64,000 nucleotides of DNA from positions 3,035 to 67,034 of the forward strand of contig CAXXPT010000012.1 of assembly GCA_963676375.2 (NCBI GenBank), read 5' to 3'. Made by a program: the position numbers and the translations under genes. Shown one piece after another: positions 26,990-42,655 of this stretch. The notes beneath the pieces are model-generated. The model searched no databases, had not been told where the DNA came from, and worked only from the letters and a program-made list of their open reading frames with translations. The stretch comes from Prolixibacteraceae bacterium (GTDB taxonomy: Bacteria > Bacteroidota > Bacteroidia > Bacteroidales > Prolixibacteraceae). Within the stretch, counting starts at the first letter, position 1. Each line of letters starts with the position of its first letter.

Positions 26990-27999
26990 ATGTCAATGAC
27001 TGAAGGAAGAGAACTGGAAAAACTGCACGAAGGGTTTCGGTTCTTCAGCTATTTGTTACTGTTTTTATCCATGTACCTGAACCAGTTGGGTTACTTTACA
27101 GTGCATGGGATAAACATCCCGGCATTTAATCCATTGGTAGCCAAAATGCAAAACCTGACATTTCTGGTAAACGTTTATAAATCCAAGACCGTTTGTTTGG
27201 TTTTTCTGGCTATTACCTGTGTGGGGACCAAAGCCCACAAAGACCGAGAACTGGCTGTTTCTACCATAGTCGGGCAGGTGATTGCCGGTCTTATTTTGTA
27301 TTGGGGAAGCCTGATCCTTTTCAAATCTTATCCGGTATCTTATCTGACCTTGACTTTCTTTGGCTTTGTTTTACTGAATATCGGCTTTGACAACATCTCC
27401 AAACTGATCAACGTCAATTTGATGAAAGACCGCTTTAACGTGGAGAACGAAAGCTTTCCGCAGGAAGAAGTTTTAAGGAAGAACGAGTACTCTGTCAACC
27501 TGCCGACAGTTTACCAGCATAAAGGCAGCGAGCACAATGGCTGGATCAACATTGTCAATCCGTTTCGGGCCACAATGGTGATTGGCACTCCCGGCTCCGG
27601 AAAATCTTTTTCGGTAGTATTGCCCTTTATTCGGCAACACCTGAATAAAGGGTTCTCGATGTGTGTCTATGACTTTAAGTATCCGGATTTATCGCTGGTT
27701 ACTTACAACCATTTCCTGAAAGCGAAGAAAAATGGGAAGTTGCCAGAATCCACCCGGTTCTACGTGATCAACTTTGAGAATATTCAAAAATCCTACAGGT
27801 GCAACCCACTGGCACCGGAGTGGATGGAAAGCCCTATCGATGCCTTTGAATCATCCCGGACGGTACTGTACAACCTGAACAGGGAATGGATACGCCAGCA
27901 GGGTGAGTTTTTCTCCGAATCCGCCGTTTCCTTTTTTGCGGCTGTAATCTGGTTTTTGAAAAAGTACAAGGATGGTCGGTTTTGCACTTTGCCCCATGC
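26990..27999 (+). pseudogene. type IV coupling protein (TraG/VirD4 family), 3'-truncated by IS21-family insertion
   Basis: N-terminal TM helices plus Walker A GTPGSGKS. The reading frame runs into the IS inverted repeat at 28000, and the C-terminal half is absent downstream of the IS. Confidence 0.8.
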
Positions 28000-28007
28000 T
28001 GTAAATT

Positions 28008-28073
28008 CCGGTCAAAGTGACCACCCTGTGCCGATTCAAATTGACCATGCGTTGCCGATTTAAATTGACCACC
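28008..28073. repeat. IS21 subterminal repeats, left end (3 copies of AA(A/T)TGACCA(C/T))
   Basis: Three copies are visible: caaagtgaccacc, caaattgaccatg and taaattgaccacc. Confidence 0.7.
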
Positions 28074-28136
28074 TAAAAATGCCATCTAAAAGCTACCTTT
28101 TTTTCATGCCGTAATTCATATTCAAAATTGTAAAAA

Positions 28137-28874
28137 TTATTCCTTGTTGATACTTTTTTTCTTTCTCATTGATTCTCCATGTAATTCGATGCGGTGAGCC
28201 TGATGAATCAGCCTGTCTAATACCGCATCAGCAATGGTTTTTTCTCCAATAATATCATACCATCCCTGAACCGGTATTTGTGAAGTAACGATTATAGAAC
28301 CCTTATTGTGTCTGTCTTCAATGATTTCCAACAGCGTTATCCTGTTCTGACTGTCGAGTGCCTGGAGTCCAAAATCATCGAGTATAATAACATCTTGCCT
28401 TTCGATTTTCGCTAGTTCCTTCAAGTATGAGCCATCGGCTTTTGCCATTTTTAACTTGGAAAACAGCTTCGATGTATTGAAGTAATTTACCCGGTATCCC
28501 TGGATACATGCCTGATAACCCAGTGCCGTTGCCAAATAACTTTTACCCACACCAGTACTTCCTGTGATTAAAACGTTCTCGTTCTTCTCTACGAACTCAC
28601 ACTCTCCAAGTCGTAAAATGAGGTTGCGTTCCAAGTTCCGTGATTGATCAAAAGTGATGCTTTCGATGTTTGATTTGTAATGGAACTTGGCATTTCTAAT
28701 TAGTCTCTCTATTTTTCGGTTGTGGCGCTCGTCCCATTCGGCATCAATAATCATGGACACAAACTGATCGATGGTGTAATGGTCTGTTTTCCCGGTTTCG
28801 ACTGCAGTTTTAAATGCACCATGCATTCCGGAAAGCTTCATTTGTCTCATTTTCGTTAACGTTGATTCATTCAT
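28137..28874 (-). CDS. istB: IS21-family helper ATPase IstB
   Basis: Walker A GSTGVGKS and Walker B IILDDFG, with the typical N-terminus MRQMKLSGM. Confidence 0.9.
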   Translation of the reverse strand: MNESTLTKMRQMKLSGMHGAFKTAVETGKTDHYTIDQFVSMIIDAEWDERHNRKIERLIRNAKFHYKSNIESITFDQSRNLERNLILRLGECEFVEKNENVLITGSTGVGKSYLATALGYQACIQGYRVNYFNTSKLFSKLKMAKADGSYLKELAKIERQDVIILDDFGLQALDSQNRITLLEIIEDRHNKGSIIVTSQIPVQGWYDIIGEKTIADAVLDRLIHQAHRIELHGESMRKKKSINKE

Positions 28875-28892
28875 AATAATTTGATTTTAAGT

Positions 28893-30440
28893 TTATTTGT
28901 AATAGTTTTTCCCTCGTATGTTGTTGTGTTCGGGCAATTCCGGATCTTCTGTTGTCTCATCCTTAATCATATCCAGGTTGTTTTCAAGGATGTTTTGTAT
29001 GGCTTTAAAACTATAGGTTCCAAAGTCAAGAGCACGTTTGCAGGCATTGATAAGTCTTTGTTTGCCAACCTTCTTTTCAAACGAAAGTATTCCCATACAA
29101 CTTTTAAACGCCTGCTCAGGATGGTTTCGGCTTTCAATGATTTTAAAGATATATTCCCCGGCAACCGGGTCGATACTGTTTGCCCAATTGATAAACCGGG
29201 GAGCAGTCCAATCGGTTACAAATTGATGGGTGCTCGCTAAATGTTCGGGTGTGGTTGTGTAGCTGTAAAGTGCGTAGTCCCGGGGATGGGTAGCCAACCG
29301 ATTGTATTTAAAGTAAATCTCGACCGTTGTTCTGGTGTACATCACCTTCACCTTTTTGCGGATGTATTGATACGGCACGCTATAAAAATGTTTGTCACAA
29401 CTAAGCTGCACATGACCATTTTGCATGACCGTTGCCTGCGCCTGATACTTGATCTCAAAGCGTTGGATGGGCAGTGGCGACAGTTTGTCCTTCTCGATGT
29501 CATTGTATAGCTCAAAACGTGTGTATGGACGGCCGGTGAGCTTTCTGTTGTTGTGTGCATCCAACAGGTCGCCAACGCGATCGTTCAGTTCCGCGATGGA
29601 GAAAAACGTTTCGTCCTTCAGTGCAGCATAAATCCTGCGGTATAATATTTTAACAGCACCTTCAACTAATGATTTGTCCCGTGGTTTATAAGCTCTGGCG
29701 GGTAGAATAGTGGTTTCGTAATGTTCTGCCAGATCTACCAGTGTTTCGTTGATGGTGGGCTCAAAACGGCTGCTTTTTATCACCGCTGACTTTAGATTGT
29801 CCGGAACTATGGCTGCCGGAACGCCTTCAAAAAAACGCATGGCATTTTCTACCGATACAACAAAATCTTCCTTCTTTTGGCTGGGCGTGGCTTCTGCATA
29901 GGTATATTGGCTTGCTCCTAAAACAGCAACAAAAAATTCTACTTCACTTACCTCTCCTGTATCTTTTTCAACCACAGATAGCTTCTTGCCTGCATAATCA
30001 ACAAACATCTTGTCGCCTGCCTTGTGGTTCATGTGCATCACCGGGTTTACCTTCTGGCTCCACAGTTTGTAATACTCCCGGAACTGAGAGCTTTGATAAC
30101 CCCCGGGATATTTTTTAATGTACTCTTCCCACATACACTGGCCCGTGACGCCAACCCGTTTGAGCTCCCGTTCCATATGAGGGAAAAACTCATATAGCTT
30201 TTGTAATCGAGGGCTAATGGACTCTTCCGGAGGGTGTGAAAACAACGTTTCCAACTCAAGGTCAGTCCTTTGATTGATCTCTTCAATGGTCAACCCCTGA
30301 ACTTCAAAAAGGGAAATATACTTCTTTACTGTATTTCTTGATAAGGATAAATATTGGCTTATAAACAGCTTACTTTTCCCGCTGCAATGCAACTTAATCG
30401 CTTTTCTAATTTTACTCATGTCCGTTAATTTATTTGCCAT
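28893..30440 (-). CDS. istA: IS21-family transposase IstA
   Basis: 515 aa with an N-terminal HTH and a DDE integrase core. It lies immediately upstream of istB. Confidence 0.9.
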   Translation of the reverse strand: MANKLTDMSKIRKAIKLHCSGKSKLFISQYLSLSRNTVKKYISLFEVQGLTIEEINQRTDLELETLFSHPPEESISPRLQKLYEFFPHMERELKRVGVTGQCMWEEYIKKYPGGYQSSQFREYYKLWSQKVNPVMHMNHKAGDKMFVDYAGKKLSVVEKDTGEVSEVEFFVAVLGASQYTYAEATPSQKKEDFVVSVENAMRFFEGVPAAIVPDNLKSAVIKSSRFEPTINETLVDLAEHYETTILPARAYKPRDKSLVEGAVKILYRRIYAALKDETFFSIAELNDRVGDLLDAHNNRKLTGRPYTRFELYNDIEKDKLSPLPIQRFEIKYQAQATVMQNGHVQLSCDKHFYSVPYQYIRKKVKVMYTRTTVEIYFKYNRLATHPRDYALYSYTTTPEHLASTHQFVTDWTAPRFINWANSIDPVAGEYIFKIIESRNHPEQAFKSCMGILSFEKKVGKQRLINACKRALDFGTYSFKAIQNILENNLDMIKDETTEDPELPEHNNIRGKNYYK

Positions 30441-30501
30441 AATCCGTTCCTTTTTTGAACGAAAGTATGGGTAACGACATGAAAAAAAGTAACTGATTTT
30501 A

Positions 30502-30612
30502 GGTGGTCAGTTTCCTCCGGAAACAGTGGTCAATTTGCTCCGGAATCTAGTGGTCAGTTTGCCCCGGAAATGGTGGTCAATTTAAACTGGAATCAGGTGG
30601 TCAATTTCACCG
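30502..30612. repeat. IS21 subterminal direct repeats, right end (5 copies, about 22-bp period)
   Basis: Five copies of (A/G)GTGGTCA(G/A)TTT, each followed by a CCGGAA-like or CTGGAA spacer. Confidence 0.75.
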
Positions 30613-30888
30613 TTTTTTCCACTGACATAATAACGTAAAGTTTTACAAGTTTACAACCTCAGTTTCGATTGAGATTTTTCATAATTGTTGTAGATTGTCG
30701 CGTGAAATTGATTGATCAATAATAATTGTCAAATAACTGATACAAAAAATAATATCATTCATAAGTATGGATAGCTACCCTAATCTTGCTGTATACCCTT
30801 TCTTTTGGTAGCGATACAAAATAGTTACATGCAATAATTTAACTTGCAAACGAAGAGATTGATAATTGATTCACAATAGAGCATAAAA

Positions 30889-31704
30889 ATGGCAGCAATA
30901 CCTAAAATTCCGATAGAGATATTAAGAAAGTTATGCGACATTATTGGTGAAACATCTAATGGGCTTTCAAATACTGAGATATCTAAGATGCTCGCTGACT
31001 GTCAAATCAATGATGTTGCCCCAACCCTTAATAAAAGGACAAGAGTATATGAGGCTTTAATTAATAAACAAAATCAAGACAATTGCTCAAATAATATTTT
31101 GAAATTTATTACAACATTTGTTAGTCCAGTAAGCTATATCGGAAATAAGAATCTACACACTGAAAGACTTGGTTACATTAATGAAGTTTTATTATTTGCA
31201 GGATTACAAATTGATGAGAGAGGAACTTTATTAAAGGCAACTGCAGCAAAGACAATAGACGAAGCACAAGAACGCGCTGGTCGTTTAAAGAAAAAACTTG
31301 TTGATAGAGCCGTTCATTCCGATGTCATCAGATTTTGTAACGCAGAACTTCTTCAAGAGAATTATTTTCATGCTGTCTTTGAATCAACAAAAAGCGTAGC
31401 AGATAAGATCAGGGAAAAAACAGGTTTGACACTTGATGGCGCAGACCTTGTAGATAAAGCATTTGGACTTGGACCAACGAACACTCCTAAACTTGCATTT
31501 AATTCCTTGCAGACAGAATCTGAACAAAGTGAGCATAAAGGATTTGCTAATTTACTCAAAGGATTATTTGGAATGTTTAGAAATGTGACAGCACACGTTC
31601 CAAAAATAAAGTGGACGATTAATGAAGAAGATGCACTTGATAGTTTAACAATGGCTTCACTATTACATAGAAAACTTGATAAATGCGTACCGACAGGATA
31701 CTAA
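30889..31704 (+). CDS. HEPN-superfamily protein (Ymh / TIGR02391-like)
   Basis: 271 aa. The C-terminal domain carries an Rx4H motif, R231-NVTA-H236 (FGMFRNVTAHVPK), as in the Ymh clade of HEPN. Confidence 0.65.
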   Translation: MAAIPKIPIEILRKLCDIIGETSNGLSNTEISKMLADCQINDVAPTLNKRTRVYEALINKQNQDNCSNNILKFITTFVSPVSYIGNKNLHTERLGYINEVLLFAGLQIDERGTLLKATAAKTIDEAQERAGRLKKKLVDRAVHSDVIRFCNAELLQENYFHAVFESTKSVADKIREKTGLTLDGADLVDKAFGLGPTNTPKLAFNSLQTESEQSEHKGFANLLKGLFGMFRNVTAHVPKIKWTINEEDALDSLTMASLLHRKLDKCVPTGY

Positions 31705-31769
31705 AAACTGTTTGTAATATGTAGGACTTTAAGCGGTGCGCAGTACCAAGCGTGAAGTCCCGGTTGAAC
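31643..31769 (+). other. attC-like imperfect palindrome after the HEPN gene
   Basis: GTTTAAC-aatgg-CTTCAC ... GTGAAG-tcccg-GTTGAAC. It has a 7-bp outer stem (one G-T), symmetric 5-nt spacers and a 6-bp inner stem, 127 bp in total. The boxes fit RYYYAAC/GTTRRRY. Confidence 0.45.
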
Positions 31770-32014
31770 TACATCCGCATACAGTATCTATTATGGGCTT
31801 ATCAAGGGTATATTGATTCTGATCAGATTGAAATTCGGTAGCTTTCCCCAATTTGGGGGCTTAAACTTACCTTTTTCGCGTTCTGAGGGAAAACTTTTCG
31901 CGAAAATTGCCTGGCCATTCTTCGGAATTGCTTTTTTATTGACTCTTTTTGTCCGGATTAGGCCATACGGCTCCGGCCCTTCCGGATGAAAGGGTTTTGG
32001 TCAGGATGGATGTT

Positions 32015-33166
32015 TTATTGGTGGTTCCGGATATTTTGTGCGTAAAAGCTTGTTGGAGAACGGACCCGTGGCAATTCCTCGACCCGTTGCATGGTTCCCT
32101 GTTTGCAATACGGACACCGACATACATCGAAGCCCGTCAACCGTTTGATTCGCTCCCGCACGTTTTCTTTGGGCTTGAGGCTGATCTCCGTTTTAGGGTT
32201 TTGCTTTTGCTTCAATGCCCTTGCACGGCTGCTGTAAATGCCATACCGGCGTATCTTTACAAAACGGTGCGGCAAAATGTGCTGGCAAAACCTCCGGAGA
32301 AATTCCACCCCGGTGAACGTGACTGGTTTTTGTTTAGCTCCATTGCGATAATCTTTGTGGCGAAAAGTCACACCTGTTTGGTCAACTTTAATTATCCGCT
32401 GGTTGGTAATGGCCACCCGATGTGTGTATTGTCCCAGGTACCTAACCACATGTTCTGCTTTAGCCAGCGAGGGTTCACAATTCACCGACCAGGGTTTGTT
32501 TCTTGCCGCTTTGAGCAAAGGTTTGTACTGCTCATATAACGATTGTTTTTTTAGCCGGCTTTCGATGCATTCCATCAGCTTTCCCCGAAATACCGAGCTT
32601 AACTGTCTGACCGGATACAGGTATTTTCCACTACTCCCAATGTGCTTCATATTTCCGGCAAGTGTTTCCCCTGCTGCCGGAACAATGCAATGAATGTGAG
32701 GGTGCAGACTCAGGTTTTGCCCCCAGGTGTGCAGCACACACACTGCTCCTGTTTCCACCCCGAAACGAGTATAACCCAGTTGGCGCAGGGTTTCCCAAAC
32801 AGCGGAAAACAAACGAATGTAAAACCATTGGCTGTCCAACAGGCAAATGGCATTCAATTCGTGCGCAACCGTGAACACAATATGGTAATGTTTTACCTCA
32901 AGTGTGGTTTCAAGTAAGTCTTCTACCCAGAATGCCTGCTTTGATCCCTGACATTTGGGGCAGTGGCGGTTGCGACAACTGTTATAGCTGATCCGATGTT
33001 TGCCACAGCAATCACATACCTCTTTATGGCCACCTAATTCCGAACTACGGCAAATGCTCAGGGCATTCAGTACCCTTTGCTGGTAACTGTTGGGATGATA
33101 TTCCGATGTAAACTGCGCTCCAAATTGCCGGATTACATCGGCAATCTCGTATTGCGGGCGATTCAT
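32015..33166 (-). CDS. IS91-family (HUH, Y2) rolling-circle transposase
   Basis: N-terminal zinc-binding CDCCG...CRNRHCPKCQ, an HUH-type LHPHIHCIVP, and a Y2 region VVRYLGQYTHRVAI. Confidence 0.9.
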   Translation of the reverse strand: MNRPQYEIADVIRQFGAQFTSEYHPNSYQQRVLNALSICRSSELGGHKEVCDCCGKHRISYNSCRNRHCPKCQGSKQAFWVEDLLETTLEVKHYHIVFTVAHELNAICLLDSQWFYIRLFSAVWETLRQLGYTRFGVETGAVCVLHTWGQNLSLHPHIHCIVPAAGETLAGNMKHIGSSGKYLYPVRQLSSVFRGKLMECIESRLKKQSLYEQYKPLLKAARNKPWSVNCEPSLAKAEHVVRYLGQYTHRVAITNQRIIKVDQTGVTFRHKDYRNGAKQKPVTFTGVEFLRRFCQHILPHRFVKIRRYGIYSSRARALKQKQNPKTEISLKPKENVRERIKRLTGFDVCRCPYCKQGTMQRVEELPRVRSPTSFYAQNIRNHQ

Positions 33167-34065
33167 TTCTTTACCCGGTACAGCGTATCCAGAGGGCTGT
33201 GTGCCTTAATCAGCGGACATTGGGCAACGTGAAGATAAATCATCGTGGTGGCAATGTGTGCATGCCCCAGAAGTTCTTTTAGGGTAACAATGTTCAGACC
33301 TTCTTCCAGCAAATGGGTGGCATAGGTGTGCCGTAGCGAATGCAGGGTGACCTCTTTTCGGATCGCGGTTTTCTTCAGCGATTCGCGCATTACCCACGAC
33401 AGACCCCGAACGCTGTAGCGGCCATCGGGTTCATGCCCGTTAAAAAGCCAGATGTGCGGATGCTCTGCCTGAAGGTACTTCTTCAGCCCTTTGGCCATAT
33501 TATCAGCCAGCGGAACGATACGGTCTTTCTTGTACTTGCTTTGCCGGATGTGAATGGTTCGGCGCTCGAAGTCGATGTCCGACAGTTTCAGGTTGACCAC
33601 TTCCTGCCCACGGAGCCCGGCCGAATAAATCAGCGTTAACACAATGCGGTGTTTGAGCAGCGTGGGTGCCTTAAACAGTTCTTTCAGCTCCGAACGGTTC
33701 AGGATAACGGGCAACTTTGCCTCCTTTTTGAGTGAGGGCAGGGAAATGACTCTTTTGTTTTGTCCGATCAGCCTGAAATAATACCGCAATCCATACACAG
33801 CATGCTTAAACGTGCTTCGCGAAGCTGATTTAGCAGACAAGGCAAGCCCGGTTAGGTATTCGTTGATTTCCTCATCCATGACATGTTCGGGCAACCGTTC
33901 AAAATGAAGCGAGATTTGCGCAATGCGCCGGATGTAATTATCAAGGGTGCTATGGCTTTGGCCACGAAGGGTAACTTGTTGATTAAGCAATTTCAAGGCA
34001 GCAGCAAAGCCTTCAATGGTTTCTGTGGCATGTTCCACGATTGTTTGTCCTGATTTCTTTCTCAT
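33163..34065 (-). CDS. tyrosine recombinase with integron-integrase-like C-terminus
   Basis: Catalytic LRHTYATHLL and LGHAHIATTMIYLHV. HV is followed by 9 residues then SPLDTL, the same spacing as IntI1 (HV-x9-SPLDAL). It lacks the roughly 40-aa IntI-specific insertion. Its stop overlaps the transposase ATG (ATGA). Confidence 0.85.
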   Translation of the reverse strand: MRKKSGQTIVEHATETIEGFAAALKLLNQQVTLRGQSHSTLDNYIRRIAQISLHFERLPEHVMDEEINEYLTGLALSAKSASRSTFKHAVYGLRYYFRLIGQNKRVISLPSLKKEAKLPVILNRSELKELFKAPTLLKHRIVLTLIYSAGLRGQEVVNLKLSDIDFERRTIHIRQSKYKKDRIVPLADNMAKGLKKYLQAEHPHIWLFNGHEPDGRYSVRGLSWVMRESLKKTAIRKEVTLHSLRHTYATHLLEEGLNIVTLKELLGHAHIATTMIYLHVAQCPLIKAHSPLDTLYRVKK

Positions 34066-34167
34066 TGGGAAAACTTTTTAAATTAGTAATCCCGGAAAGT
34101 TCTCAAATCATACTTTATGTTTATATTAGTGAAGATGAAAAAAGCTATCCGCCAGTTGGCGGATTTA

Positions 34168-34297
34168 GTTCAACATCAGCTACTCGGCCAAGTTCGGCAA
34201 CAGGGTTTTCGGTGTGTATCTTTCCGCTTGGGCTGTTTTTCGTCTTGACAGCAAATTGCCCGCAGTCCGCTTATGTGTGTAGCTTTTTGAGTTATGC
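34168..34297 (+). other. attC/attI-like site between recombinase gene and Mrr-like gene
   Basis: GTTCAAC-atc-AGCTAC ... GTAGCT-ttttga-GTTATGC. The 6-bp inner stem is perfect, and the outer boxes pair only partly (4 Watson-Crick pairs plus 1 wobble). Confidence 0.35.
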
Positions 34298-34329
34298 GCA
34301 ATTAGACTTAACCACGAATTAAGCAACAT

Positions 34330-35898
34330 ATGAATGATGAATTAAAATATATATTGACAGATTTTCTCAATATTAAAACCGATTCCTTTAAGAAAGAAAT
34401 TTCAGACGGAATTGAGTTTAGTTTATCATTTCCTCTTCCTTCGATAGGTTTTTCAAATAGTAGGATTGATATTATTAGAGATTATACTGAGGTTTCATAT
34501 TGCTGTGAAGAAATAGCTCCTTTTATAACAATACTAAATTCAGATTTTGTTACAAGGGAGAAATATTATAAGGACTTTAAATTTTCATGTATAGCCAATG
34601 ATGTAGAATCCCTAACAGAGAAATTAGTATTCTTTGCTGAAATGTTACATGGAGACTCTTCTGATTATGATGATATTGATAGAATATGCTTCTTTGATGA
34701 GCTTTCTGAATATGAAGAAAGTTATTCAAAAAGAGAATTTGTTTTTCCTGAATTAATTAATAATTACTGGGCAAACCTAATTAATGGAGCATATTGGGAG
34801 TTCGCATCAGAATATGAGGAATCTGAAAGTAAATTCTTCGCTAAAACATATAAAAAATATCCAGAGCACAGATACGGATTTTGGAAAAGTCCTCTATCCA
34901 AAGATTTTAAAGAGCCAATTTTTTTCTCAACTGAAAACTGGATTATACCACCAAAAACAGACTTGATTGAATCTTTAAAAATTTACTCAGGTTTAGAACA
35001 TAAATTAGTTTTAGAAGCAGCAGATAGAATTGACTACCAAGATCAAATAATATTGTTAAGTAATTCAACTGCTGTTCGTTTTTCTCAGGAAAATGACTTG
35101 ATAAACTCAATAAAATGTACCGAAAGAGCTCTGATGCTTAAAAACAATAAGATTGATAGTGTTAAAGTAACCAATTTGAATAAAACTATTGTACAGAAAG
35201 ATCTATTTGGAGAAGAAGTTCAGCAAAAGAAAGTGAATAAACGAATTAGGCATAATGACAATATCCAAGTTGATTATTCAAAATTAAAATTCAGTCTTTC
35301 AGAATATGGTGATTTAGTAACAGTTGAATACAATAATTATACTCATGTATTCTTTTATAATGAGCCACTTACATTTGATAAAATCAAAGACTTAAATTCT
35401 TATTTGTATCCTGCATTTTCAAAAACACAGAAATTAATTGACAATTCAATAACTGGTACTTGTGACTGGACAAAGTTAGACGATGATTCTTTTGAGGAAC
35501 TATGTTATGATATTTTATATTGTCACCCTCATTTTGATTTCACTACAATAAAAAAAATGGGAAAGTCAAAGTCGAGAGATGGTGGACGTGATATTACAAT
35601 AAAAACAAGAAGGACTCCTACTAAAGAACCAGAACTCTATATATTTCAATGTAAGTTTTTATCCGAAAAGACATCATTATCGACTTCTAAATTACCAAAT
35701 GCGGGAAATGTAATAATGCAATTTGGAGCAAAAGGATATGGCGTTTTTACAAGTACTGTAATTGACTCTACTTTGTATGACATGTTGGATGGATTTAGTC
35801 GGAATATGCATGTTGATACTTCATTTAGTTGGTCGAAGTATGAACTTGAAAGACATCTAAATAAAAATGTAATGATTAAGGATAAACATTTCAAATAA
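34330..35898 (+). CDS. Mrr-type (PD-(D/E)xK) restriction endonuclease domain protein with uncharacterised 370-aa N-terminal region
   Basis: The C-terminus FEELCYDIL...SRDGGRDITI...LYIFQCKF matches the Mrr_cat pattern. The gene is very AT-rich. Confidence 0.65.
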   Translation: MNDELKYILTDFLNIKTDSFKKEISDGIEFSLSFPLPSIGFSNSRIDIIRDYTEVSYCCEEIAPFITILNSDFVTREKYYKDFKFSCIANDVESLTEKLVFFAEMLHGDSSDYDDIDRICFFDELSEYEESYSKREFVFPELINNYWANLINGAYWEFASEYEESESKFFAKTYKKYPEHRYGFWKSPLSKDFKEPIFFSTENWIIPPKTDLIESLKIYSGLEHKLVLEAADRIDYQDQIILLSNSTAVRFSQENDLINSIKCTERALMLKNNKIDSVKVTNLNKTIVQKDLFGEEVQQKKVNKRIRHNDNIQVDYSKLKFSLSEYGDLVTVEYNNYTHVFFYNEPLTFDKIKDLNSYLYPAFSKTQKLIDNSITGTCDWTKLDDDSFEELCYDILYCHPHFDFTTIKKMGKSKSRDGGRDITIKTRRTPTKEPELYIFQCKFLSEKTSLSTSKLPNAGNVIMQFGAKGYGVFTSTVIDSTLYDMLDGFSRNMHVDTSFSWSKYELERHLNKNVMIKDKHFK

Positions 35899-35903
35899 TA
35901 AAA

Positions 35904-36037
35904 GCGCATAACACTGTATATACAAAATGGGCGAGATTGTAGTAAGTTAAATGGTTGTAGCCCGCTTTAAATTGTCTCGGTTTGATTAGTTTGAAGCCCG
36001 CAATCGCTCGCTTTGCATATACTTGTCCGTTGTGCGT
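35904..36037 (+). other. attC-like imperfect palindrome after the Mrr-like gene
   Basis: GCGCATAAC-act-GTATATAC ... GCATATAC-ttgtcc-GTTGTGCGT. The 9-bp outer stem has 2 wobbles, the 8-bp inner stem has 1 mismatch, and AAA/TTT and GCGAG/CTCGC pair further in. It is 134 bp long. Confidence 0.5.
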
Positions 36038-36091
36038 CAGGATACGAATTAGCGGAATCTATTTTGCATTATTGACTTAAATATTTAGAAT

Positions 36092-36643
36092 ATGAAAATT
36101 GCATGTTTAGGTTGGGGATCATTAATTTGGCAACCCAAAAACCTACTTATTAGGAGAGAATGGTTTTCGGATGGACCGTTTTTACCAATCGAATTTGCAA
36201 GAAAATCACAAGATGGCAGATTAACACTTGTGATAACGGAGACAGCTAAACCGATTCGGACATTGTGGGCATTAATGGCGACAGAAAATCTCGATACTGC
36301 TAAAAATTCTTTGCTAGTTCGAGAAGGAATTCCCACAAAAAATATAGATAGTTCTATCGGATCAATAACAATAACAGAAGAAACTGAGAACAAGATAAAG
36401 TTGATTATAAGGGACTGGGCAAATAGGCAGGGACTAGATGCTGTTATATGGACAAACCTTCCACCAAAGTTTGATGCGAACACTTGTGAACCCAGTTTAA
36501 TTCAAGCAATTGATTATTTAAAATCTTTAGATATAAATTCAAGATCAAATGCCGAGGAATATATCAGAAAAACGCCGAAACAAATTGATACGGATTTTAG
36601 ACGGAAATTTGAATCAGAATTTGATTGGACATTTGTTTCTTAA
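36092..36643 (+). CDS. gamma-glutamylcyclotransferase-like (ChaC/GGCT fold) protein, tentative
   Basis: The N-terminal ACLGWGSLIWQP resembles the ChaC/GGCT signature [FY]GYGSLIW. The protein is 183 aa. Confidence 0.4.
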   Translation: MKIACLGWGSLIWQPKNLLIRREWFSDGPFLPIEFARKSQDGRLTLVITETAKPIRTLWALMATENLDTAKNSLLVREGIPTKNIDSSIGSITITEETENKIKLIIRDWANRQGLDAVIWTNLPPKFDANTCEPSLIQAIDYLKSLDINSRSNAEEYIRKTPKQIDTDFRRKFESEFDWTFVS

Positions 36644-36683
36644 CGCACGAACGCACAACATCCAGAAGGTGGAAGATTTGAGC

Positions 36684-36902
36684 ATGCTTATCGAAAAATG
36701 GCGCAAGCCCACCGAAACCAGAAGGAACCTGCAAACCTTCTCTCTGGGAGCAGATGGGTTGGGTGCAACAGTATTCCTTTGGGACGCATCAGGAAAAGAG
36801 GTTAAAACTTCTAACACTCCGGTAGTATTCGCTGTGATGGAAGAAATCAAAACGACTTTGGATGAACGGATCAAAGAAGTTGAAACCCAGATCAAGTTCT
36901 GA
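36684..36902 (+). CDS. small hypothetical protein or gene fragment (72 aa from ATG 36684)
   Basis: The ORF lies in a locally GC-richer segment and is followed directly by a strong hairpin. The upstream part of track ORF 36549 overlaps the previous gene and is probably not translated. Confidence 0.3.
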   Translation: MLIEKWRKPTETRRNLQTFSLGADGLGATVFLWDASGKEVKTSNTPVVFAVMEEIKTTLDERIKEVETQIKF

Positions 36903-36904
36903 AA

Positions 36905-36933
36905 AAAGAAAGAGGCGAAATGCCTCTTTCTTT
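36905..36933 (+). terminator. stem-loop terminator candidate
   Basis: AAAGAAAGAGGC-gaaat-GCCTCTTTCTTT forms a perfect 12-bp stem starting 2 nt after the stop codon. Confidence 0.55.
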
Positions 36934-37042
36934 AAGAGTATGAATAGAGTACTTTTATTAGTCAGAAAACAAAAAATAGTAATTGACAATTGACTCTTAT
37001 TGTTTATCTTTGATATAATATTAAAATTCAATTACAACTCCA

Positions 37043-38320
37043 ATGTATATTATTACGGTACTTAAGGATAAATCCATCAAAGAGGAAATCAGTAAATTAT
37101 TCAGCATTAGAGATTCTTATGATACCATACACATAAAACTCCCTTTAATAGAGTGGATTAGTGCGAATAGCCTGAATTTTCTTGTGACATTTATTGTCTC
37201 CAATAGATATCATTTCCATTTTAAAAAGATTATTATCGAGCTTTTTGAAGCTAAAATTATCTCAGACGTATTAGAAGAAAATGATGTTTCTGAGGAAATA
37301 CTTGACTCATTGACCAAAAAATTAATATTCTATGAGTCGATGGAGTTATATGAGAATATAAATTATGATTATGTTATACAGTTTCCAAACTGCGATACCT
37401 TAAAAAAAGTGAAGGAGTTATTGGTTTCTCATGAATATGAAAAAAAATGGATGTATTCTTCCAAGATGCTGGCGCTTAATCCTCTAATTAATGACGAAAA
37501 AGAACAAATATATCTTACTGCCCGGCTAAATACATTGACAAATATTATATTTCATAATCTATATGGTAAAGTAGATTATGGTGAGGCAAGAGAGGCTAGC
37601 TCCCAGATAATGTATGAACTCGTGAAGAATATATATCAACACGCATATAGTGAGGATATTAGTGCCAGACTGGAGAAACACGGTATAGCCTGTGCGCAGA
37701 TTAATAAATTTCCAATTATCCAAAATAAAGAATATAGTTTAAAGGATATTAGCGGAATTTTAGAATTGGTTAAAAAAAGGACGAAAGGCAAAGTCTGGAA
37801 ATTTTTATCCATTTCGATTTGTGATTTCGGTGTTGGTATTAATTCAGTAATTAGAACAGATTTGAAAAGTAAGTTGACAAGTGAGAAAAGCGATTTTACG
37901 ATCGGTGAATTTACTGTGAATGAAGAATTATTGGCGGATGACTATAAGTTGATCGAGATCCCCATAAGAACTGAGTATAGTACCAAGACTTTATCCGACA
38001 AAAGAGAAGATTGGACAATTAGTAAAGAAAGAAAACTGGTACTTTCTAGAAGGGGGCGGGGATATATTTTCTGCATTTGCTTCGTTGGCGAATTTTTTGG
38101 AAGGATGCAGATTCGAAGCAATAATTATGTATTGGATGTCTTTGCCAAAGAAAGTGCTGCATTGAGAAGTACTAAGTGGAGAACAGAACCCGAAGAATCA
38201 CTTGCTATCATTGAGAAAGAATTTGGGAATTACTTTCAAATAATACAAAAAAAAGAAAAAGGATTTTTCCCAGGAACTCAAATCATAATCGAAATTCCAG
38301 TCGAAGTTTTTCAAAATTGA
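37043..38320 (+). CDS. GHKL-type ATPase-like protein (histidine-kinase/anti-sigma-kinase-like ATP-binding fold)
   Basis: N-box-like E192-LVK-N196-IYQHA, G1-box-like D261-F-G-V-G265, RRGRGY, and the terminal GTQIIIEIP typical of HATPase_c ends. The N-terminal 180 aa are uncharacterised. Confidence 0.55.
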   Translation: MYIITVLKDKSIKEEISKLFSIRDSYDTIHIKLPLIEWISANSLNFLVTFIVSNRYHFHFKKIIIELFEAKIISDVLEENDVSEEILDSLTKKLIFYESMELYENINYDYVIQFPNCDTLKKVKELLVSHEYEKKWMYSSKMLALNPLINDEKEQIYLTARLNTLTNIIFHNLYGKVDYGEAREASSQIMYELVKNIYQHAYSEDISARLEKHGIACAQINKFPIIQNKEYSLKDISGILELVKKRTKGKVWKFLSISICDFGVGINSVIRTDLKSKLTSEKSDFTIGEFTVNEELLADDYKLIEIPIRTEYSTKTLSDKREDWTISKERKLVLSRRGRGYIFCICFVGEFFGRMQIRSNNYVLDVFAKESAALRSTKWRTEPEESLAIIEKEFGNYFQIIQKKEKGFFPGTQIIIEIPVEVFQN

Positions 38321-38330
38321 CATTATTACA

Positions 38331-40334
38331 ATGAGTTATAATTGGAACGAAGTAGCATTGGTTGATTTAAAAAATCAGCCTTTTAGAAATAATAATGGTA
38401 TTGAAATAAATTTATTGGATTATCTGTTTAATCAGATTAATCTAATTGTTAAGCAACAAGAGCTTAGTCAAAAAAATAGTTTTGAAAAATTCAGGCAAAG
38501 TCGCTGTTTGATTTGTTTGGATTCGGTAAATATATCAAATGAAGATTGCTCGCTTTTGGACACTCTTATCCCAGTAAGTGAAAAACATCCATTTATTTTA
38601 ATCAATTGTTCTGTTGATTCTATCAATCTTTTTTCACTTGCATTACATGCCGATTTTCAAAGGCTGGGGTACATTTTACCCATATTTGGACAATTAACAC
38701 CAATTGATCCTGTTTATGTCAAAGAAAAGTATGGAATCAAATTTTATGAATTTTTAAATGGAGAAGTTGACACGCTTTCAATCTCGGATTTAAAAGATCC
38801 CGACAAAGTTTTGGTTGATGATATTCTTAGAAGGTATTCATATCTCGAATGCATAAATGATGTTTTAAGGTTTGTGGATAATCACATTGAATGGTTGGGG
38901 GTCAAATCTAAAAAATTCAAAGACCTGCTAAATCATTTATATTCAAGTAATAGGGAATGTTTTGATCCCCAGTGGGCAGTCAATACTTTTGGTGTCTCTG
39001 AAAGTGAATTAAATCGTTATAGCCAAAGTTCAATGCTGTTCAGCAAAGAAGGTGATCAAATCAGGTTCAGATTTCTAAAAAGCAATTTGTTTTTAAAGAT
39101 TCAGTCAAAACTATACTACCAATTTGAAGAAAAAATGATCGAAGCCGAAGCTTTGCAGGTCTATAGAAAAACCAAAGCAGGCGAAAGCAGTTTTAATGAG
39201 TATCATAATATTGGGAGGGTCTTTGAAAATACAGATCGGTATAAGCTTAAGTTACTGGCGGCATTCAAGAAGAAAATAGCATATCATTTTCCGGACTTTC
39301 TCTATCCTCAGCAGAAATCAATTATCTTGATTGATAACGGTTATGAATCAGGAATGTATTTCCTGCTAAAAAAGTATTTCCCCAGCAAAAAGGTAACCAG
39401 AATTCTGAATTGCCATGATCATCCAATAATTTACCCGTTTGATGAAGAGATTAATAGTTCAGATAACGCAATTGTGGTAATTGATCTCATCAATACCGGT
39501 AATTTTCTTAGTAAAGTAGTCAAAATGGTAAAGGATATGTATAAAGCGGAAATCTTCGCAGTTTATACATTCGTTATTAATGGCTCAATAGCGACAAATC
39601 AGATCAGTTCCGCACCTATTTTTTCATATGTGGAAAAGAAACTTGAAAAGTCAGATGAAATAAAGGATATCTTACATGCAACCAGAGACAATGCTCGTGA
39701 CAATTTCAGATATAAAAGCTTTTGGCAAATCATTAATAATGTGGGCAGCATTGATGGGAAAATTCAACAAAATGTCGTTAGAAAGGGAGGTTCTATTTTT
39801 TATACACTATACAGAAACAAGATTTTTGTTGACGTAAAAAATCCTTCTTTTGAAACGACTGATTTTAATGTTTTTTTGGGAACAATAATAACATCGAATA
39901 ACATTAATAAAATAATTTTTCTCAGCGAGAACTCGAAATCGTTTTTCCATTCACTGAATGATTTTTCTAAGTATACGGTTAACTCGGTGATTTTTAATAG
40001 TAAAAGCAAAACATTTTCATCCCAAATTTTTGACTCGGATCGGATTCTAATTTTGGATGTTACCTTATTAAGCGGACACAACATCGAAGCTTGTTTAACT
40101 GAATTAGATAAAAAAGAATACCATAATCGTAAAGTTTTTGTCGCTGTTTTCTTTGAGAAAAGGATTATCGATGAAAATGTTATTGGTAAAATTGATTCTT
40201 TAGTTAATCTGCACCCGGAATTGAAGGGAAAAATCTTTAAATATTACACAAGTAATATTCCTTTTTATAAAATTGATAAAGACTCAATTAATTCAAGCAG
40301 AATAAAAAATAGTTTAGAAAAATATAAGAAATGA
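38331..40334 (+). CDS. protein with two phosphoribosyltransferase-like (type I PRTase) segments
   Basis: AIVVIDLINTGNF (aa 380-392, nt 39468-) and RILILDVTLLSGH (aa 571-583, nt 40041-) resemble the PRPP-loop pattern (hydrophobic x4, acidic, xxx[TS]G). Each is preceded by a beta-strand/Gly segment (SIILIDNGYESG). Each has one acidic residue rather than two. Confidence 0.45.
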   Translation: MSYNWNEVALVDLKNQPFRNNNGIEINLLDYLFNQINLIVKQQELSQKNSFEKFRQSRCLICLDSVNISNEDCSLLDTLIPVSEKHPFILINCSVDSINLFSLALHADFQRLGYILPIFGQLTPIDPVYVKEKYGIKFYEFLNGEVDTLSISDLKDPDKVLVDDILRRYSYLECINDVLRFVDNHIEWLGVKSKKFKDLLNHLYSSNRECFDPQWAVNTFGVSESELNRYSQSSMLFSKEGDQIRFRFLKSNLFLKIQSKLYYQFEEKMIEAEALQVYRKTKAGESSFNEYHNIGRVFENTDRYKLKLLAAFKKKIAYHFPDFLYPQQKSIILIDNGYESGMYFLLKKYFPSKKVTRILNCHDHPIIYPFDEEINSSDNAIVVIDLINTGNFLSKVVKMVKDMYKAEIFAVYTFVINGSIATNQISSAPIFSYVEKKLEKSDEIKDILHATRDNARDNFRYKSFWQIINNVGSIDGKIQQNVVRKGGSIFYTLYRNKIFVDVKNPSFETTDFNVFLGTIITSNNINKIIFLSENSKSFFHSLNDFSKYTVNSVIFNSKSKTFSSQIFDSDRILILDVTLLSGHNIEACLTELDKKEYHNRKVFVAVFFEKRIIDENVIGKIDSLVNLHPELKGKIFKYYTSNIPFYKIDKDSINSSRIKNSLEKYKK

Positions 40335-41470
40335 TAGAAAACATTGAAGACCAATTAATATCCAATTCAATGGATATCTTGTCAAAACTCAGGGATGATG
40401 AGATGCTTGTTTCTGTATTTTTTATTGATCAGATTAATTTTTATAGAGATAAGAAATTAGCATCTTATTTTATTAACAAGATTCTAAGTGAAAATCAAAA
40501 ATTTGGAAGAATAAAAATTGCTGGAATTGTTGATGCAATTTATGAATATCAACTAAGCTCTTCAATTTCAGAGGAAGTTGTAGAAAGCTTAATTCGACTG
40601 GTTGAAAATTACTTTTATGATAATGACTCATCGGACACTTCTTGGATAAATAAGGTTCTGGATATCGTGCTTAATTCATACAGCCCCAGAAAATTGGAAA
40701 TGCTTATTGATATTTTGAGTTTGCGGTTTAAGCCCTATCCTGAAAAGCATTTTGGGATTTTTTCAGAAAAATTGCTGAAAACGATCTTAATAGAAAAAGA
40801 ATTAAATGTCAATTTTAAATATCAAGCCAAAATTTACAAACTTAAAATTGAGGATGCAAGTAAAGAAGAGGAAGAAAAAAACATAAAACATCATATAAGT
40901 CGAATAATTAAAGAATTAAGTATGATCCCATCAAAAAAAATTATTGATGTTTTTATTTCATATTCTCATGAAGGTGATGAGCATAAAACTAAGGTGATCG
41001 AATTTACCAATCATTTAAGAAAGTTAGGCTTTAACGCCAAGTGTGATTTCTTTTTAAAACAACAGGAAACATCCATTGATTTTGATGAAATGATGTTGGA
41101 CCAGATATCACGTTCTGATAAAATAATTTTAGTACTAACCGAAGAATATAAAAGGAGAGCTGATGATACAAAGCAATCTGGTATTAAAGATGAAATGAAA
41201 TTAATAAAACAGATACTTGAAAAGAGTGATAATAAAATAATTTTGGTCTCATTCAAGTCTCTGCCACAACAGATAAAACCCGACCAAATTACTCCACTTT
41301 GGTTAGCATCTAGGGAAGTGATCGATCTAAAAGATGACATGAATCACGGTTTACGAACCTTAATCTCAAAATTGAAAGAAATTGAATTATTGAATTTTGT
41401 CGAAGTAAATTCAGAGCAAAGTGAAATTGAATCAGAGAAAATAGGGAATTTTACTCTCGATGATATTTAG
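40331..41470 (+). CDS. TIR-domain protein with helical N-terminal region
   Basis: DVFISYSHEGDEH at aa 206-218, ILVLTEEY, and SGIKDEMKLI containing a candidate catalytic Glu288. Its ATG overlaps the upstream stop (ATGA). Confidence 0.7.
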   Translation: MIENIEDQLISNSMDILSKLRDDEMLVSVFFIDQINFYRDKKLASYFINKILSENQKFGRIKIAGIVDAIYEYQLSSSISEEVVESLIRLVENYFYDNDSSDTSWINKVLDIVLNSYSPRKLEMLIDILSLRFKPYPEKHFGIFSEKLLKTILIEKELNVNFKYQAKIYKLKIEDASKEEEEKNIKHHISRIIKELSMIPSKKIIDVFISYSHEGDEHKTKVIEFTNHLRKLGFNAKCDFFLKQQETSIDFDEMMLDQISRSDKIILVLTEEYKRRADDTKQSGIKDEMKLIKQILEKSDNKIILVSFKSLPQQIKPDQITPLWLASREVIDLKDDMNHGLRTLISKLKEIELLNFVEVNSEQSEIESEKIGNFTLDDI

Positions 41471-41508
41471 AATAACTACAAAATTAATTTTGGTTTTTTG
41501 TATGCAGA

Positions 41509-42059
41509 TTATTTGACGTTTTTTATCAAAGTGAACTCGTCTTTTCTATTCCGAAGTTCAATTGCTTTATCAATGTAAGCTCCAACCCCCTTGATAAAGT
41601 CCACCCATTTTACTGATTCGATGTACGAACAATCTTCAGGATAAACCTAGAGTCTGTTACACAGATTTCTTTGAGGCGCTTTTGTGTTGAACATGTTGTC
41701 TATAAGTATTTTTAATAATGTCGGTGTATTTAATCTTAGGCAATTGCATATTGGATCATAGGTAATGTAATAATCATACCTGCTGTTTTCATCGGGCAGA
41801 ACAACCGCGATAACTCCGTTGGTTTTACTTCGTTGGCCTTGCCTGCAGTTCCTTTAAAGAATATGAAATTCCATGCTCTCGCCGTCGTCCTCACCATTGT
41901 AGATGTGGTCATCGTTTTCAAGCATTTCAGCTAGTTTATCTACATAATGCCGTGCTGTCGTCGGAATCTTCTGCCGAAAAAATCGACTACTTCATAAATA
42001 TTCAAATCTTCTACCAGCGAATCAGAATATTTGTATGAAACAAAGACTTTTCTTCCCAT
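41509..42059 (-). pseudogene. decayed ThsB-like TIR (DUF1863-type) gene
   Basis: The minus strand reads MGRKVFVSYKYSDSLVEDLN..., then needs frameshifts to continue TARHYVDKLAEMLENDDHIYNGEDDGES, ...SKTNGVIAVVLPDENSRYDYY..., NMFNTK... and YIESVKWVDFI. There are at least two stops or frameshifts, and a central segment is missing. Confidence 0.6.
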
Positions 42060-42061
42060 AT

Positions 42062-42655
42062 CTAAATTTGATCAATAAGTAAATCCTGAAAAAGAGACAT
42101 GTACTCATAATCGTGGAGTAAACGCTCGTTTTTTTTGACTTGCCGCAACCTATCGTAAACCAACTTTGAAGCTGCTCCGGTACTTGCTATAGGCAGGATA
42201 AGAGCTTTGGAGTTATACTTTCGGAACATTTCGTATTCTTCCAGGATTCCGTCCATACCACCAATAAAGATTGCAGCTGTGAAGTTATTCTCCGAAAACA
42301 TTCTTTCCCGCATCAATCTTACACTTGATTCTTTTGTTCCTGAAGTTCTGGTTAGAATGACATTATTAAAATCAAAATTGGACGCATGGAAATTCTCTAT
42401 GAAGAATTCCGATTGATAGAGAGTGACATGGTCTTGAATATCCATGTTCAATTTCTCCAAAACGTTATAAATAATCGGAGTGATCGACGGGTGACCTCCC
42501 CAAATTAATTTAAACCTTGGCAGTATACTAATTGCAAGGGCAATTACGGCATCCCGAATAGCAATGACATCAGCCGTTTCGAAATATTTTGGATCTCTTT
42601 CTTTTAACGGGATACTCGCGGAAAGGAATATATTTTTTAATTTGTCTGAAACCAT
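42062..42655 (-). CDS. standalone SLOG/LOG-like (STALD-type) domain protein
   Basis: 197 aa with LIWGGHPSITP, then FIGGMDGILEE (GGxxGxxxE-like) and PIASTGAA, which is the Rossmann/LOG pattern. Its start overlaps the upstream TIR gene by 19 nt. Confidence 0.55.
   Translation of the reverse strand: MVSDKLKNIFLSASIPLKERDPKYFETADVIAIRDAVIALAISILPRFKLIWGGHPSITPIIYNVLEKLNMDIQDHVTLYQSEFFIENFHASNFDFNNVILTRTSGTKESSVRLMRERMFSENNFTAAIFIGGMDGILEEYEMFRKYNSKALILPIASTGAASKLVYDRLRQVKKNERLLHDYEYMSLFQDLLIDQI

Follow-up and report, generated by a model that had tools for sequence, protein, structure and literature searches.

The locus described here raises the question of what the imperfect palindromes between its genes are and, if they are integron attC sites, which enzyme has served them. 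It lies in a 64,000-nucleotide stretch of DNA from a Prolixibacteraceae bacterium (assembly GCA_963676375.2, contig CAXXPT010000012.1), which was analyzed over its whole length and is called the window below. A preliminary description, made from the letters alone, had divided the region into four integron cassettes separated by four attC-type sites, designated H, 0, A, and B. All of the strings quoted there were found at their coordinates, and the segment from 30.8 to 36.7 kb is very probably a damaged integron-type cassette array, with no integrase of its own in the window, that was invaded by a cassette-like insertion sequence (IS) targeting attC sites. Part of the proposed cassettes stood, as units of one open reading frame (ORF) and one attC with defense-type cargo, whereas the unit encoding a recombinase and a Y2 transposase is the IS itself. 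The array is of a known kind; what is unusual is the attC-targeting IS, together with the lack of a canonical IntI integrase here and at the heads of related arrays.

Three cassettes were recognized in the window, all on the + strand, with an attC hairpin of ~130 nt beginning 5–7 nt past each ORF. Cassette 1 (ORF 30889–31704) encodes a 271-amino acid HEPN/Ymh protein, as judged by matches to Pfam Hypoth_Ymh (142.7 bits), TIGR02391, and, over its full length, PADLOC PD-Lambda-3_B (271 bits). Cassette 2 (ORF 34330–35898) encodes a 522-amino acid protein with a C-terminal ...DGGRDI...FQCKF motif of Mrr/restriction endonuclease-like appearance; the label "Mrr-like" reflects this motif alone, because no Pfam, NCBIfam, or PADLOC match was obtained. 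Cassette 3 (ORF 36092–36643) encodes a 183-amino acid protein with 2,321 homologues, one of which is named ChaC by JGI, and it likewise had no Pfam, NCBIfam, or PADLOC family match. One of its homologues (P0014) sits among McrBC, SIR2, HerA, and Schlafen-type genes, and no site of the hairpin family described below was seen near the GGCT-like homologues in two further loci (L053 and L054). Exact-protein look-ups of the 522- and 183-amino acid products, the IS recombinase, and the match P0122 returned no record.

The attC of cassette 2 (attC_A, 35904–36037, + strand) reads GCGCATAAC-act-GTATATAC...GCATATAC-ttgtcc-GTTGTGCGT, with the crossover at G|TTGTGCGT. Site A was thus correctly described, with boxes as quoted, and it is a genuine attC-type member of the hairpin family captured by covariance model R1 (82.5 bits, as a member of the training set; 79.2 bits for its orthologue in the metagenome contig L052). 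Its bottom strand folds with the R and L boxes paired (z = -1.8) and carries a 4-nt bulge on the 3' arm. Site 0 is split by the IS. The left half of its R'' box (GTTTGTAA|) occupies 31710–31717 (+ strand), 5 nt past the HEPN stop codon, the junction being placed by comparison of IS copies, and the IS parts it from its final C at 34174. The body (34174–34299, + strand) reads C-atc-AGCTAC...GTAGCT-ttttga-GTTATGCGC, has its canonical crossover G|TT at 34291/34292, and scored 46.5 bits with R1 on the minus strand, again as a member of the training set. Removal of the IS in silico gave TAA-aaact-GTTTGTAAC-atc-AGCTAC...GTAGCT-ttttga-GTTATGCGC. The HEPN cassette thereby regains a normal end, which identifies site 0 as its attC; the body of the site had been correctly recognized, but the GTTCAAC at 34168 that was given as its left box is an end box of the IS. 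Boxes of AAC/GTT type bracketing an imperfect palindrome of 57–141 nt were therefore found at two places, 34174–34299 (with 31710–31717) and 35904–36037.

Box complementarity is central to the argument for cassettes. The preliminary description held that the upstream core of each unit is the exact reverse complement of its own downstream inverse core, and this was scored, for the window as well as for related loci, by matching GTT plus 6 nt past a site against 6 nt plus AAC at the following site. Two of the three pairs proposed in the window, 34291/35904 and 36029/36651, are exact 9-mer complementarities; the third, 31763/34168, consists of the IS end boxes and occurs in every copy of the IS. 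Across loci, 10 of 14 cognate pairs were complementary at all positions beyond the triplet (6/6), as against none of 156 non-cognate pairs, for which the mean was 1.8 of 6. Nine of the perfect pairs were scored in the printed run and the tenth (L029 IS1) was re-extracted by eye; the window supplied two of the ten, and in several the paired boxes are separated by an inserted IS. The boxes themselves vary widely between cassettes (for example, GGCATT, AGCGGT, GTATGC, AGGTTG, and GGCAAA). Each cassette opens with TTxxxxxx, the reverse complement of the R'' box belonging to that same cassette, a pattern that would be the footprint of a circular cassette integrated at G|TT.

The hairpins also form a family. 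Thirteen left flanks of IS copies were aligned with the minus strands of sites A and 0 (alignment A1); RNAalifold gave a 12-pair stem with compensatory changes at every pair, and covariation in A1 and A2 was strong. Model R1 was built from this family. With filters off, it recovered only 34174–34299 and 35904–36037 in the window, and in other loci it gave 35 matches, of which ~20 had played no part in training; almost all share the IS orientation. Among 30 distinct members, 90.4% of stem cells pair (65.1% in shuffles), and 113 cells show double changes where 36 were expected, spread over 12 of 15 pairs; neither value was reached in any of 500 shuffles. The covariation score was 0.60, compared with 0.15 for shuffles and 0.05–0.14 for slid controls, in an alignment that was fitted to the R1 model and so favors the structure. 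A G·T wobble is kept in 24 of the 30 members, and in 12 of 15 the fold of the ORF-antisense strand was the more stable; both agree with the bottom-strand folding of integrons.

In related loci the sites alternate with single ORFs of uniform direction, antisense to the site-sense strand, in the ORF-sense layout stop codon, ~10–40 nt, AAC...hairpin...GTTRRRY, 25–66 nt, next ATG. The expectation that relatives would carry the same sites around different genes was borne out: R1 sites flank unrelated ORFs in more than 20 loci, and L052 continues into different cassettes. Cargo there includes thioredoxin-like, AAA_15, HD-CE, and SUKH proteins, esterases, and resistance genes. An attC-type hairpin family occurs across Bacteroidota and is conserved across orders. 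Two further repeat families of ~370 nt, 95–97% identical, flank ORFs in a Prolixibacteraceae metagenome-assembled genome (L006 2051–2425 and 3603–3963; L011 380–755, 1803–2177, 5536–5905, 1315–1675, and 5048–5408).

The recombinase/Y2 unit is a 2,456-bp IS91-family element of ISWz1-like architecture (31718–34173, minus strand) that interrupts attC_0 at AA|C. Read along its own strand, it runs TTGAAC-TAAAT-hairpin ... recombinase ... transposase ... GTTCAAC-hairpin-TACATA. The transposase (32015–33166, minus strand; 383 amino acids) is an IS91-family Y2 HUH enzyme that matched NF033538 with 379.5 bits over positions 1–355 of 356; it has Y2_Tnp (PF04986) and Zn_Tnp_IS91 (PF14319) domains, and the motifs HPHIH and YLGQY were seen in the translation. 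The recombinase (33163–34065, minus strand; 300 amino acids) is a Xer/IntI-like tyrosine recombinase with Phage_integrase and Phage_int_SAM_4 domains, and its gene overlaps the transposase start (ATGA). RefSeq labels relatives of the pair "tyrosine-type recombinase/integrase" and "IS91 family transposase." With one genome taken per species, relatives of the recombinase were encoded in 51 loci, nearly all in Bacteroidota and many on contigs of 2–4 kb. Five copies of ~2,434 bp, ~99.7% identical and with unrelated flanks, were found in one Prolixibacteraceae metagenome-assembled genome, with no target duplication beyond a shared TT. Homology of the copies to the window stops at ~34182 and ~31715. 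In the comparison with 50 loci it ended at these borders, and related copies were seen in more than 40 loci. All share the same ends on their own strand, ...G|TTGAAC-TAAAT-hairpin at one and GTTCAAC, a few nucleotides, an imperfect stem-loop, and TATTTA|TT at the other, so that GAAC, which belongs to the target tetranucleotide GAAC/CAAG (GTTC/CTTG) of the IS91 family, is here part of the conserved IS end (G|TTGAAC-TAAAT) and not of the variable flank. The unit is therefore a multi-copy IS91-family element, neither the integrase of the array nor an ordinary cassette.

The element has an attC-like terminal site of its own (31718–31769, minus strand), made of GTTCAAC, 3 unpaired nucleotides, an imperfect stem-loop, a 6-nt spacer, and A|TT. 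When 10 diverged copies were joined end to end, the junctions shared one fold, with a 6-bp R box, 3 unpaired nucleotides, a looped stem, and a 6-nt spacer; 9 of its 19 pairs show compensatory changes in the alignment. The strand complementary to the IS genes gave the more stable fold in 7 of 9 copies, with a tie in L029 and a less stable fold in L017. By its sequence, then, the IS would behave like a self-mobilizing cassette whose circular form would carry a complete attC-like site. This also disposes of site H. Because homology among IS copies reaches its right arm (31752–31769), GTGAAG-tcccg-GTTGAAC is the terminal site of the IS; the left arm, GTTTAAC-aatgg-CTTCAC, lies in the HEPN ORF, and R1 gave no match. 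Site H thus consists of a piece of the IS and a piece of coding sequence that happen to pair.

The choice of target was examined from the flanks. IS left flanks are mostly imperfect hairpins of 57–135 nt that read, in the IS sense, YAAC-GGTnn-stem...stem-nnT-G, followed by TTGAAC. For at least 19 independent copies, the left junction falls precisely on the 3' GTT of an R1 match, always in one orientation. In the cassette sense the insertion point is the stop codon-proximal AA|C of the attC R'' box, which in the site sense lies after the G of G|TT, and the IS is always antisense to the cassettes. The right flanks, TT plus 6 nt, pair with the next site, and up to three copies occur within 10 kb (L029/L037). 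That the IS flanks are attC sites points to site-specific recombination. One copy (L011 at 5906) sits at the end of a ~370-nt repeat and not after an R1-type attC. In these insertions the complement of the IS gene strand runs on into the top (cassette-sense) strand of the target. The simplest course would begin with an IS circle whose junction forms an attC-like site; the IS recombinase would then connect this junction with an attC, on its top-strand side. The substrate may come from the Y2 transposase in the form of a single-stranded circle, because IS91 makes circular single-stranded intermediates, according to a passage of PMC5714925 that cites Garcillan-Barcia 2001.

With the IS assigned, the question of the integrase could be addressed. 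A profile of five Xer/IntI-like recombinases detected only the IS-borne enzyme in the 64 kb; with no other tyrosine recombinase, the array is CALIN-like (CALIN, cluster of attC sites lacking integron integrases). The IS recombinase scored 162 bits with TIGR02249 (cut-off 265), in two stretches, and 193 bits with XerA_Arch. Its best sequence matches in the PDB were XerA and VchIntIA (2a3v), to which it is about equally close, the former being archaeal, and the match to VchIntIA is interrupted near residue 181. The two-stretch score below cut-off and this break indicate that the enzyme has no IntI-specific insert. Three related arrays (L004, L059, and L060) are headed by a different recombinase of ~360–390 amino acids, upstream of the cassettes and co-oriented with them. 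TIGR02249 scores were 188 for L004 and 206 for L059, both below the cut-off; the L060 enzyme was recognized with the recombinase profile made for this analysis. The heads from Persicobacter sp. JZB09 plasmids (L059 28579–29754 and L060 23255–24346) have a ~115-amino acid N-terminal extension and no IntI insert. The L059 enzyme exceeds the cut-off of NF040815 ("site-specific tyrosine recombinase/integron integrase"), and the first cassette there starts at G|TTGGCGGT, ~175 nt past the recombinase stop codon, and has the R'' box ACCGCCAA|C.

A 946-bp unit occurs twice, with 99% identity, in one Prolixibacteraceae genome (L003 11896–12841 and L004 9530–10474), inside cassette arrays. It encodes an IntI/XerA-like recombinase of 266 amino acids in L003 and 373 in L004, and its borders are G|TTGAAC and, at the opposite end, hairpin-GAAAC-G|TT. 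Similarity between the two copies is lost right at the AAC/GTT box, which is how an attI-like border should behave, and the unit looks like a movable module of integrase plus attI. The idea that it is a duplicated cassette was dropped, since its product is a recombinase and it does not make a clean cassette.

These results bear on the proposal that the locus is a complete, if unusual, integron, in which the 300-amino acid recombinase would be the integrase, site 0 the attI or first attC, and the recombinase and transposase together a cassette. The recombinase gene is indeed divergent from the + strand cassettes and 100 nt from site 0, its product is IntI-like in its N- and C-terminal parts, and the unit is bounded by complementary GTTGAAC/GTTCAAC boxes. 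We nevertheless consider this arrangement unlikely: the gene lies inside a discrete multi-copy element whose conserved ends abut many different attCs, the enzyme lacks the IntI insert, and related arrays are headed by a different, co-oriented recombinase.

The right end of the array was clarified by L052, which is 97% identical in DNA to window positions 34192–36662 and carries the same 522- and 183-amino acid ORFs. This contig begins inside site 0 and has three sites of the attC_0 subtype. After the 183-amino acid ORF it holds a full attC, ACGCACAAC-ATC-AGCCAC...GTAGCT-tcttgc-ATTGGCGGC, and beyond this third attC come two more cassettes, one of them LmuA-like. Homology to the window ends at 36662, and from 36660 to 36902 (+ strand) the window carries the C-terminal 80 codons of a 119-amino acid Prolixibacteraceae gene, followed by a terminator-like hairpin (~36904–36935). 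The end of homology and this gene fragment mean that the window keeps only the R'' box of the third attC: ACGCACAAC plus ATC (36651–36662, + strand) is the sole remnant of the attC of cassette 3. Site B had been proposed as a degenerate attC at this place; it is an R'' box without an R1 match, where L052 has the complete site. The 119-amino acid gene has 67 homologues of about that length, mostly 78–95% identical to the fragment (Sunxiuqinia and Mangrovibacterium), and the intact gene in Sunxiuqinia indica reads ...GAAAAACG|CATCCAG. Array and gene join at AA|C with CATC microhomology, at the same position as the IS insertion point. A search for the N-terminal part of the gene along the left edge of the array turned up no more than 10 nt of similarity, at the border of an IS21-family element; this was judged to be chance and rejected as the missing part.

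Three R' boxes of L052 read GAT or ATT rather than GTT (113–121, GATATGCGC; 2596–2604, ATTGGCGGC; 4297–4305, GATAGCAGC), whereas the window has the canonical GTT at the site orthologous to an L052 variant box. These L052 boxes may mark decaying sites or tolerated variants.

The shared position of the right junction (36659) and the IS insertion point lends some color to a second alternative, in which 31718–36659, that is, the IS with two cassettes, moved as one by IS91-type one-ended rolling-circle transposition that ended at a pseudo-end, G|TTGTGCGT, and the array would be assembled by the IS. IS91/ISCR elements do read through terIS and mobilize DNA on that side (PMC7923331 and PMC5714925), and circles spanning ISWz1 copies were detected by polymerase chain reaction in Elizabethkingia (PMC11322121). 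We give this scenario little credence, since in L052 the same two cassettes run into an intact attC and more cassettes, and since reading across the IS, from the HEPN stop through GTTTGTAA|C-atc-AGCTAC, yields a cassette end of the normal kind.

At the left end, a degenerate attC-like remnant was read from the sequence at 30765–30832 (+ strand), GTATGGATAGCTACC...GGTAGCGATAC-aaaata-G|TTACATGC. It is weak: the R'' AAC is absent and R1 gave no match. Its L boxes (AGCTAC/GTAGC) are similar to those of site 0, and its GTTACA is complementary over 6 nt to the TGTAAC in the R'' box of the HEPN cassette. The G|TT at 30824/30825 (G|TTACAT) is presumed to be the start of that cassette. The remnant hairpin lies ~130 nt, and the G|TT roughly 190 nt, from the end of the IS21-family element. 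The array is thus damaged at both ends, the left site having no R'' and the last attC being cut after its R''.

Several observations weigh against a cassette array invaded by an attC-targeting IS. Only two intact attCs are present in the window, both in the R1 training set, and Rfam 15, a release without an attC family, returned only noise, both at gathering thresholds over the whole window and in E-value mode over 30.4–37.2 kb. No conserved single extrahelical G or T was identified in the family, and its R''–L'' spacer measures 3–4 nt, as against 5 nt in the class 1 attCs compared (seven, from two plasmids, nearly all of aadA type); the other spacer is 6 nt in both. No IntI with an IntI-specific insert was found in the window or at the three related array heads. 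About one-third of the IS left flanks have no R1 match, although several of these show the 3' arm of the family. The IS uses the R'' end of its target (top-strand AA|C) and not the canonical R' crossover, and the 3/6 spacer geometry of the target mirrors the 6/3 of its own site; a simple attC × attC reaction fails to explain the insertion product.

Motif scans were of little help. A strict scan of the window for RYYYAAC, a 6-bp L box, and GTTRRRY gave only the spurious site H (shuffles, 0.2 per window), missing the real sites because these depart from the strict consensus. That the hairpins are intergenic palindromes (resembling repetitive extragenic palindromes or miniature inverted-repeat elements, or terminators), their complementarity arising from a shared end consensus RCGCAYAAC, can hardly be right, for although the four window boxes are mutually similar, a relaxed AAC...stem...GTT scan is non-specific (40 matches against 38.5 in shuffles), and no integrase lies nearby, the boxes differ between cassettes and match only their own partner in the proportions given above, related arrays vary in content, and divergence between the L003 and L004 copies sets in precisely at the AAC/GTT box.

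The array lies in a low-GC island (28–38%, ~30.6–46 kb) within a backbone of 42–47%, and the IS stands out inside it as a block of 48–50% GC (~31.7–34.2 kb) between flanks of 30–37%. The island is a defense island in a Prolixibacteraceae-like (Bacteroidota) mobile region. To its left, the IS21-family element (in the region 26990–30632) comprises istA (28893–30440, minus strand) and istB (28137–28874, minus strand), with repeated GGTGGTCAATTT motifs at its end near 30480–30632. It seems to interrupt an ORF (26990–28063) whose product is type IV coupling protein-like by its P-loop motif; no continuation of that gene was seen right of the IS21. Downstream of the array, defense-type genes with no attC sites between them occupy 37043–43830. 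They encode a bSEFIR/TIR protein (40331–41470) and a ThsB-like TIR protein (42637–43830; 409 bits), along with a small ORF (42062–42655) that has a weak ThsA/STALD match and two unknown ORFs of 425 and 667 amino acids. A conserved non-coding stretch of ~70–140 nt (~79% identity) lies beyond these genes (window 44209–44360), after the last cassette of L052 (5292–5358), and 4.5 kb from the intact 119-amino acid gene in Sunxiuqinia indica (L058 12900–13040); it may mark where a hotspot of variable cargo in a mobile element has its fixed right border. A 53-nt AAC...GTT palindrome with a 9-bp stem (45917–45969) falls within overlapping ORFs where the low-GC island ends on the right; with its weak R1 score of 6.9 bits, it is probably due to chance.

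The same attC family and IS compose the resistance region of a clinical Myroides plasmid. The multidrug-resistance region of Myroides odoratimimus p63039 (NZ_CP013691; L061 5571–22252) holds tet(X2), two copies of aadS, blaMYO-1, blaOXA, and a GNAT gene, with four copies of the IS91-plus-recombinase element, each at G|TTGAAC after sites of the attC family. R1 gave six matches among these genes, up to 98.9 bits and none in the training set. Scored by the complementarity rule, both copies of aadS and the GNAT gene reached 9/9, and blaMYO-1 reached 8/9. The fourth IS is followed by a box whose partner is the site beside tet(X2), at a distance of 16 kb, a pairing that implies that IS copies have rearranged with one another. 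In the literature, resistance regions have been described as flanked by "ISWz1/ISMno24" (PMC10973501 and PMC11322121), and a "tetX-catB-IS91-XerD" cluster is described in Weeksellaceae (PMC11194056). In Riemerella anatipestifer, units carrying aph(3')-IVb, lnu(H), and blaRATA have a 27-bp 5' untranslated region and a 3' region with an attC-like 140-bp stem-loop; the 2026 paper reports that they integrate without homology, by an unknown mechanism (PMC13148043). No paper on an IS91-plus-tyrosine recombinase element that targets attC was found, in an incomplete literature search without ISfinder/TnCentral text.

Taken together, these data make it possible, and we put this forward tentatively, that Bacteroidota have an integron-like system of their own, with a conserved attC family and circular-type cassettes, Xer/IntI-like recombinases devoid of the IntI-specific domain and co-oriented with the cassettes at the heads of short arrays, and a parasitic, cassette-mimicking, ISWz1-like element that uses the non-canonical, top-strand R'' side and perhaps enters as a rolling-circle single strand. 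The cassettes would bring defense genes here and resistance genes in Myroides. If true, it would explain the build-up of "IS91-XerD" multidrug regions in integrative and conjugative elements (ICEs) and plasmids of Weeksellaceae and Myroides, and the homology-independent integration in Riemerella; the "ISWz1" or "IS91-XerD" regions of Elizabethkingia and Chryseobacterium ICEs may be alike. Testable hypotheses follow for the assembly of tet(X)-type resistance islands in Bacteroidota. The recombinases serving these arrays seem to be devoid of the hallmark domain of IntI, so that software relying on that domain would list the arrays only as integrase-less attC clusters. The IS would join two single-strand DNA machineries, rolling-circle transposition and hairpin-site recombination, in one element. 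The defense cargo, for its part, fits the recent view of integrons as stores of anti-phage systems.

Set against known systems, the array resembles CALINs as defined by IntegronFinder in having one ORF per unit followed by an attC of 57–135 nt with AAC/GTT cores. With integron arrays in general it shares cassette-specific R'/R'' complementarity, common orientation, and diverse cargo, and with the defense-gene cassettes of chromosomal integrons (bioRxiv 10.1101/2024.07.02.601686) a partly anti-phage content. It differs in that the array-head recombinases are XerA/IntI-like, co-oriented with the cassettes, and without the IntI insert, that the R''–L'' spacer is 3–4 nt rather than 5, and that the attC family is conserved across Bacteroidota orders. 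The lineage, which the preliminary description regarded as unusual, is not exceptional, because integrons have been reported in Bacteroidota (PMC8618304). The Riemerella units (PMC13148043) are alike in geometry, the present cassettes having a leader of 25–66 nt and a site of ~130 nt, whereas the Riemerella work gives no cassette rule, array context, or recombinase.

As for the IS, the IS1111-attC group (PMC11187229) and group IIC-attC introns (PMC3001079) are also autonomous and occupy a fixed position and orientation in attC. They employ a DEDD transposase with a guide RNA, or a reverse transcriptase/ribozyme, whereas the present element has a tyrosine recombinase and a Y2 HUH enzyme, its own attC-like site, and cassette-like ends. 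Only the recombinase and Y2 ORFs were found in it, and no Rfam intron match; it resembles both groups in its choice of target but belongs to neither. The two-ORF IS91 members ISWz1/ISMno24 have the same gene pair and order, the likeness to ISWz1 being by description rather than alignment, and ISWz1-type elements of Weeksellaceae are likewise multi-copy in accessory regions of ICEs and plasmids, with no target duplication. The papers on them (PMC10973501, PMC11322121, and PMC11194056) treat them as ordinary IS copies flanking resistance genes; an attC-type target, G|TT junctions, or an attC-like IS end was not found reported for ISWz1-type elements. A plausible analogue of the insertion proposed here comes from phage biology. 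The single-stranded circle of CTX-phi folds to a hairpin site that is joined to a chromosomal site by Xer tyrosine recombinase; it uses the host XerCD and dif, whereas here the recombinase is encoded by the element and the target is attC.

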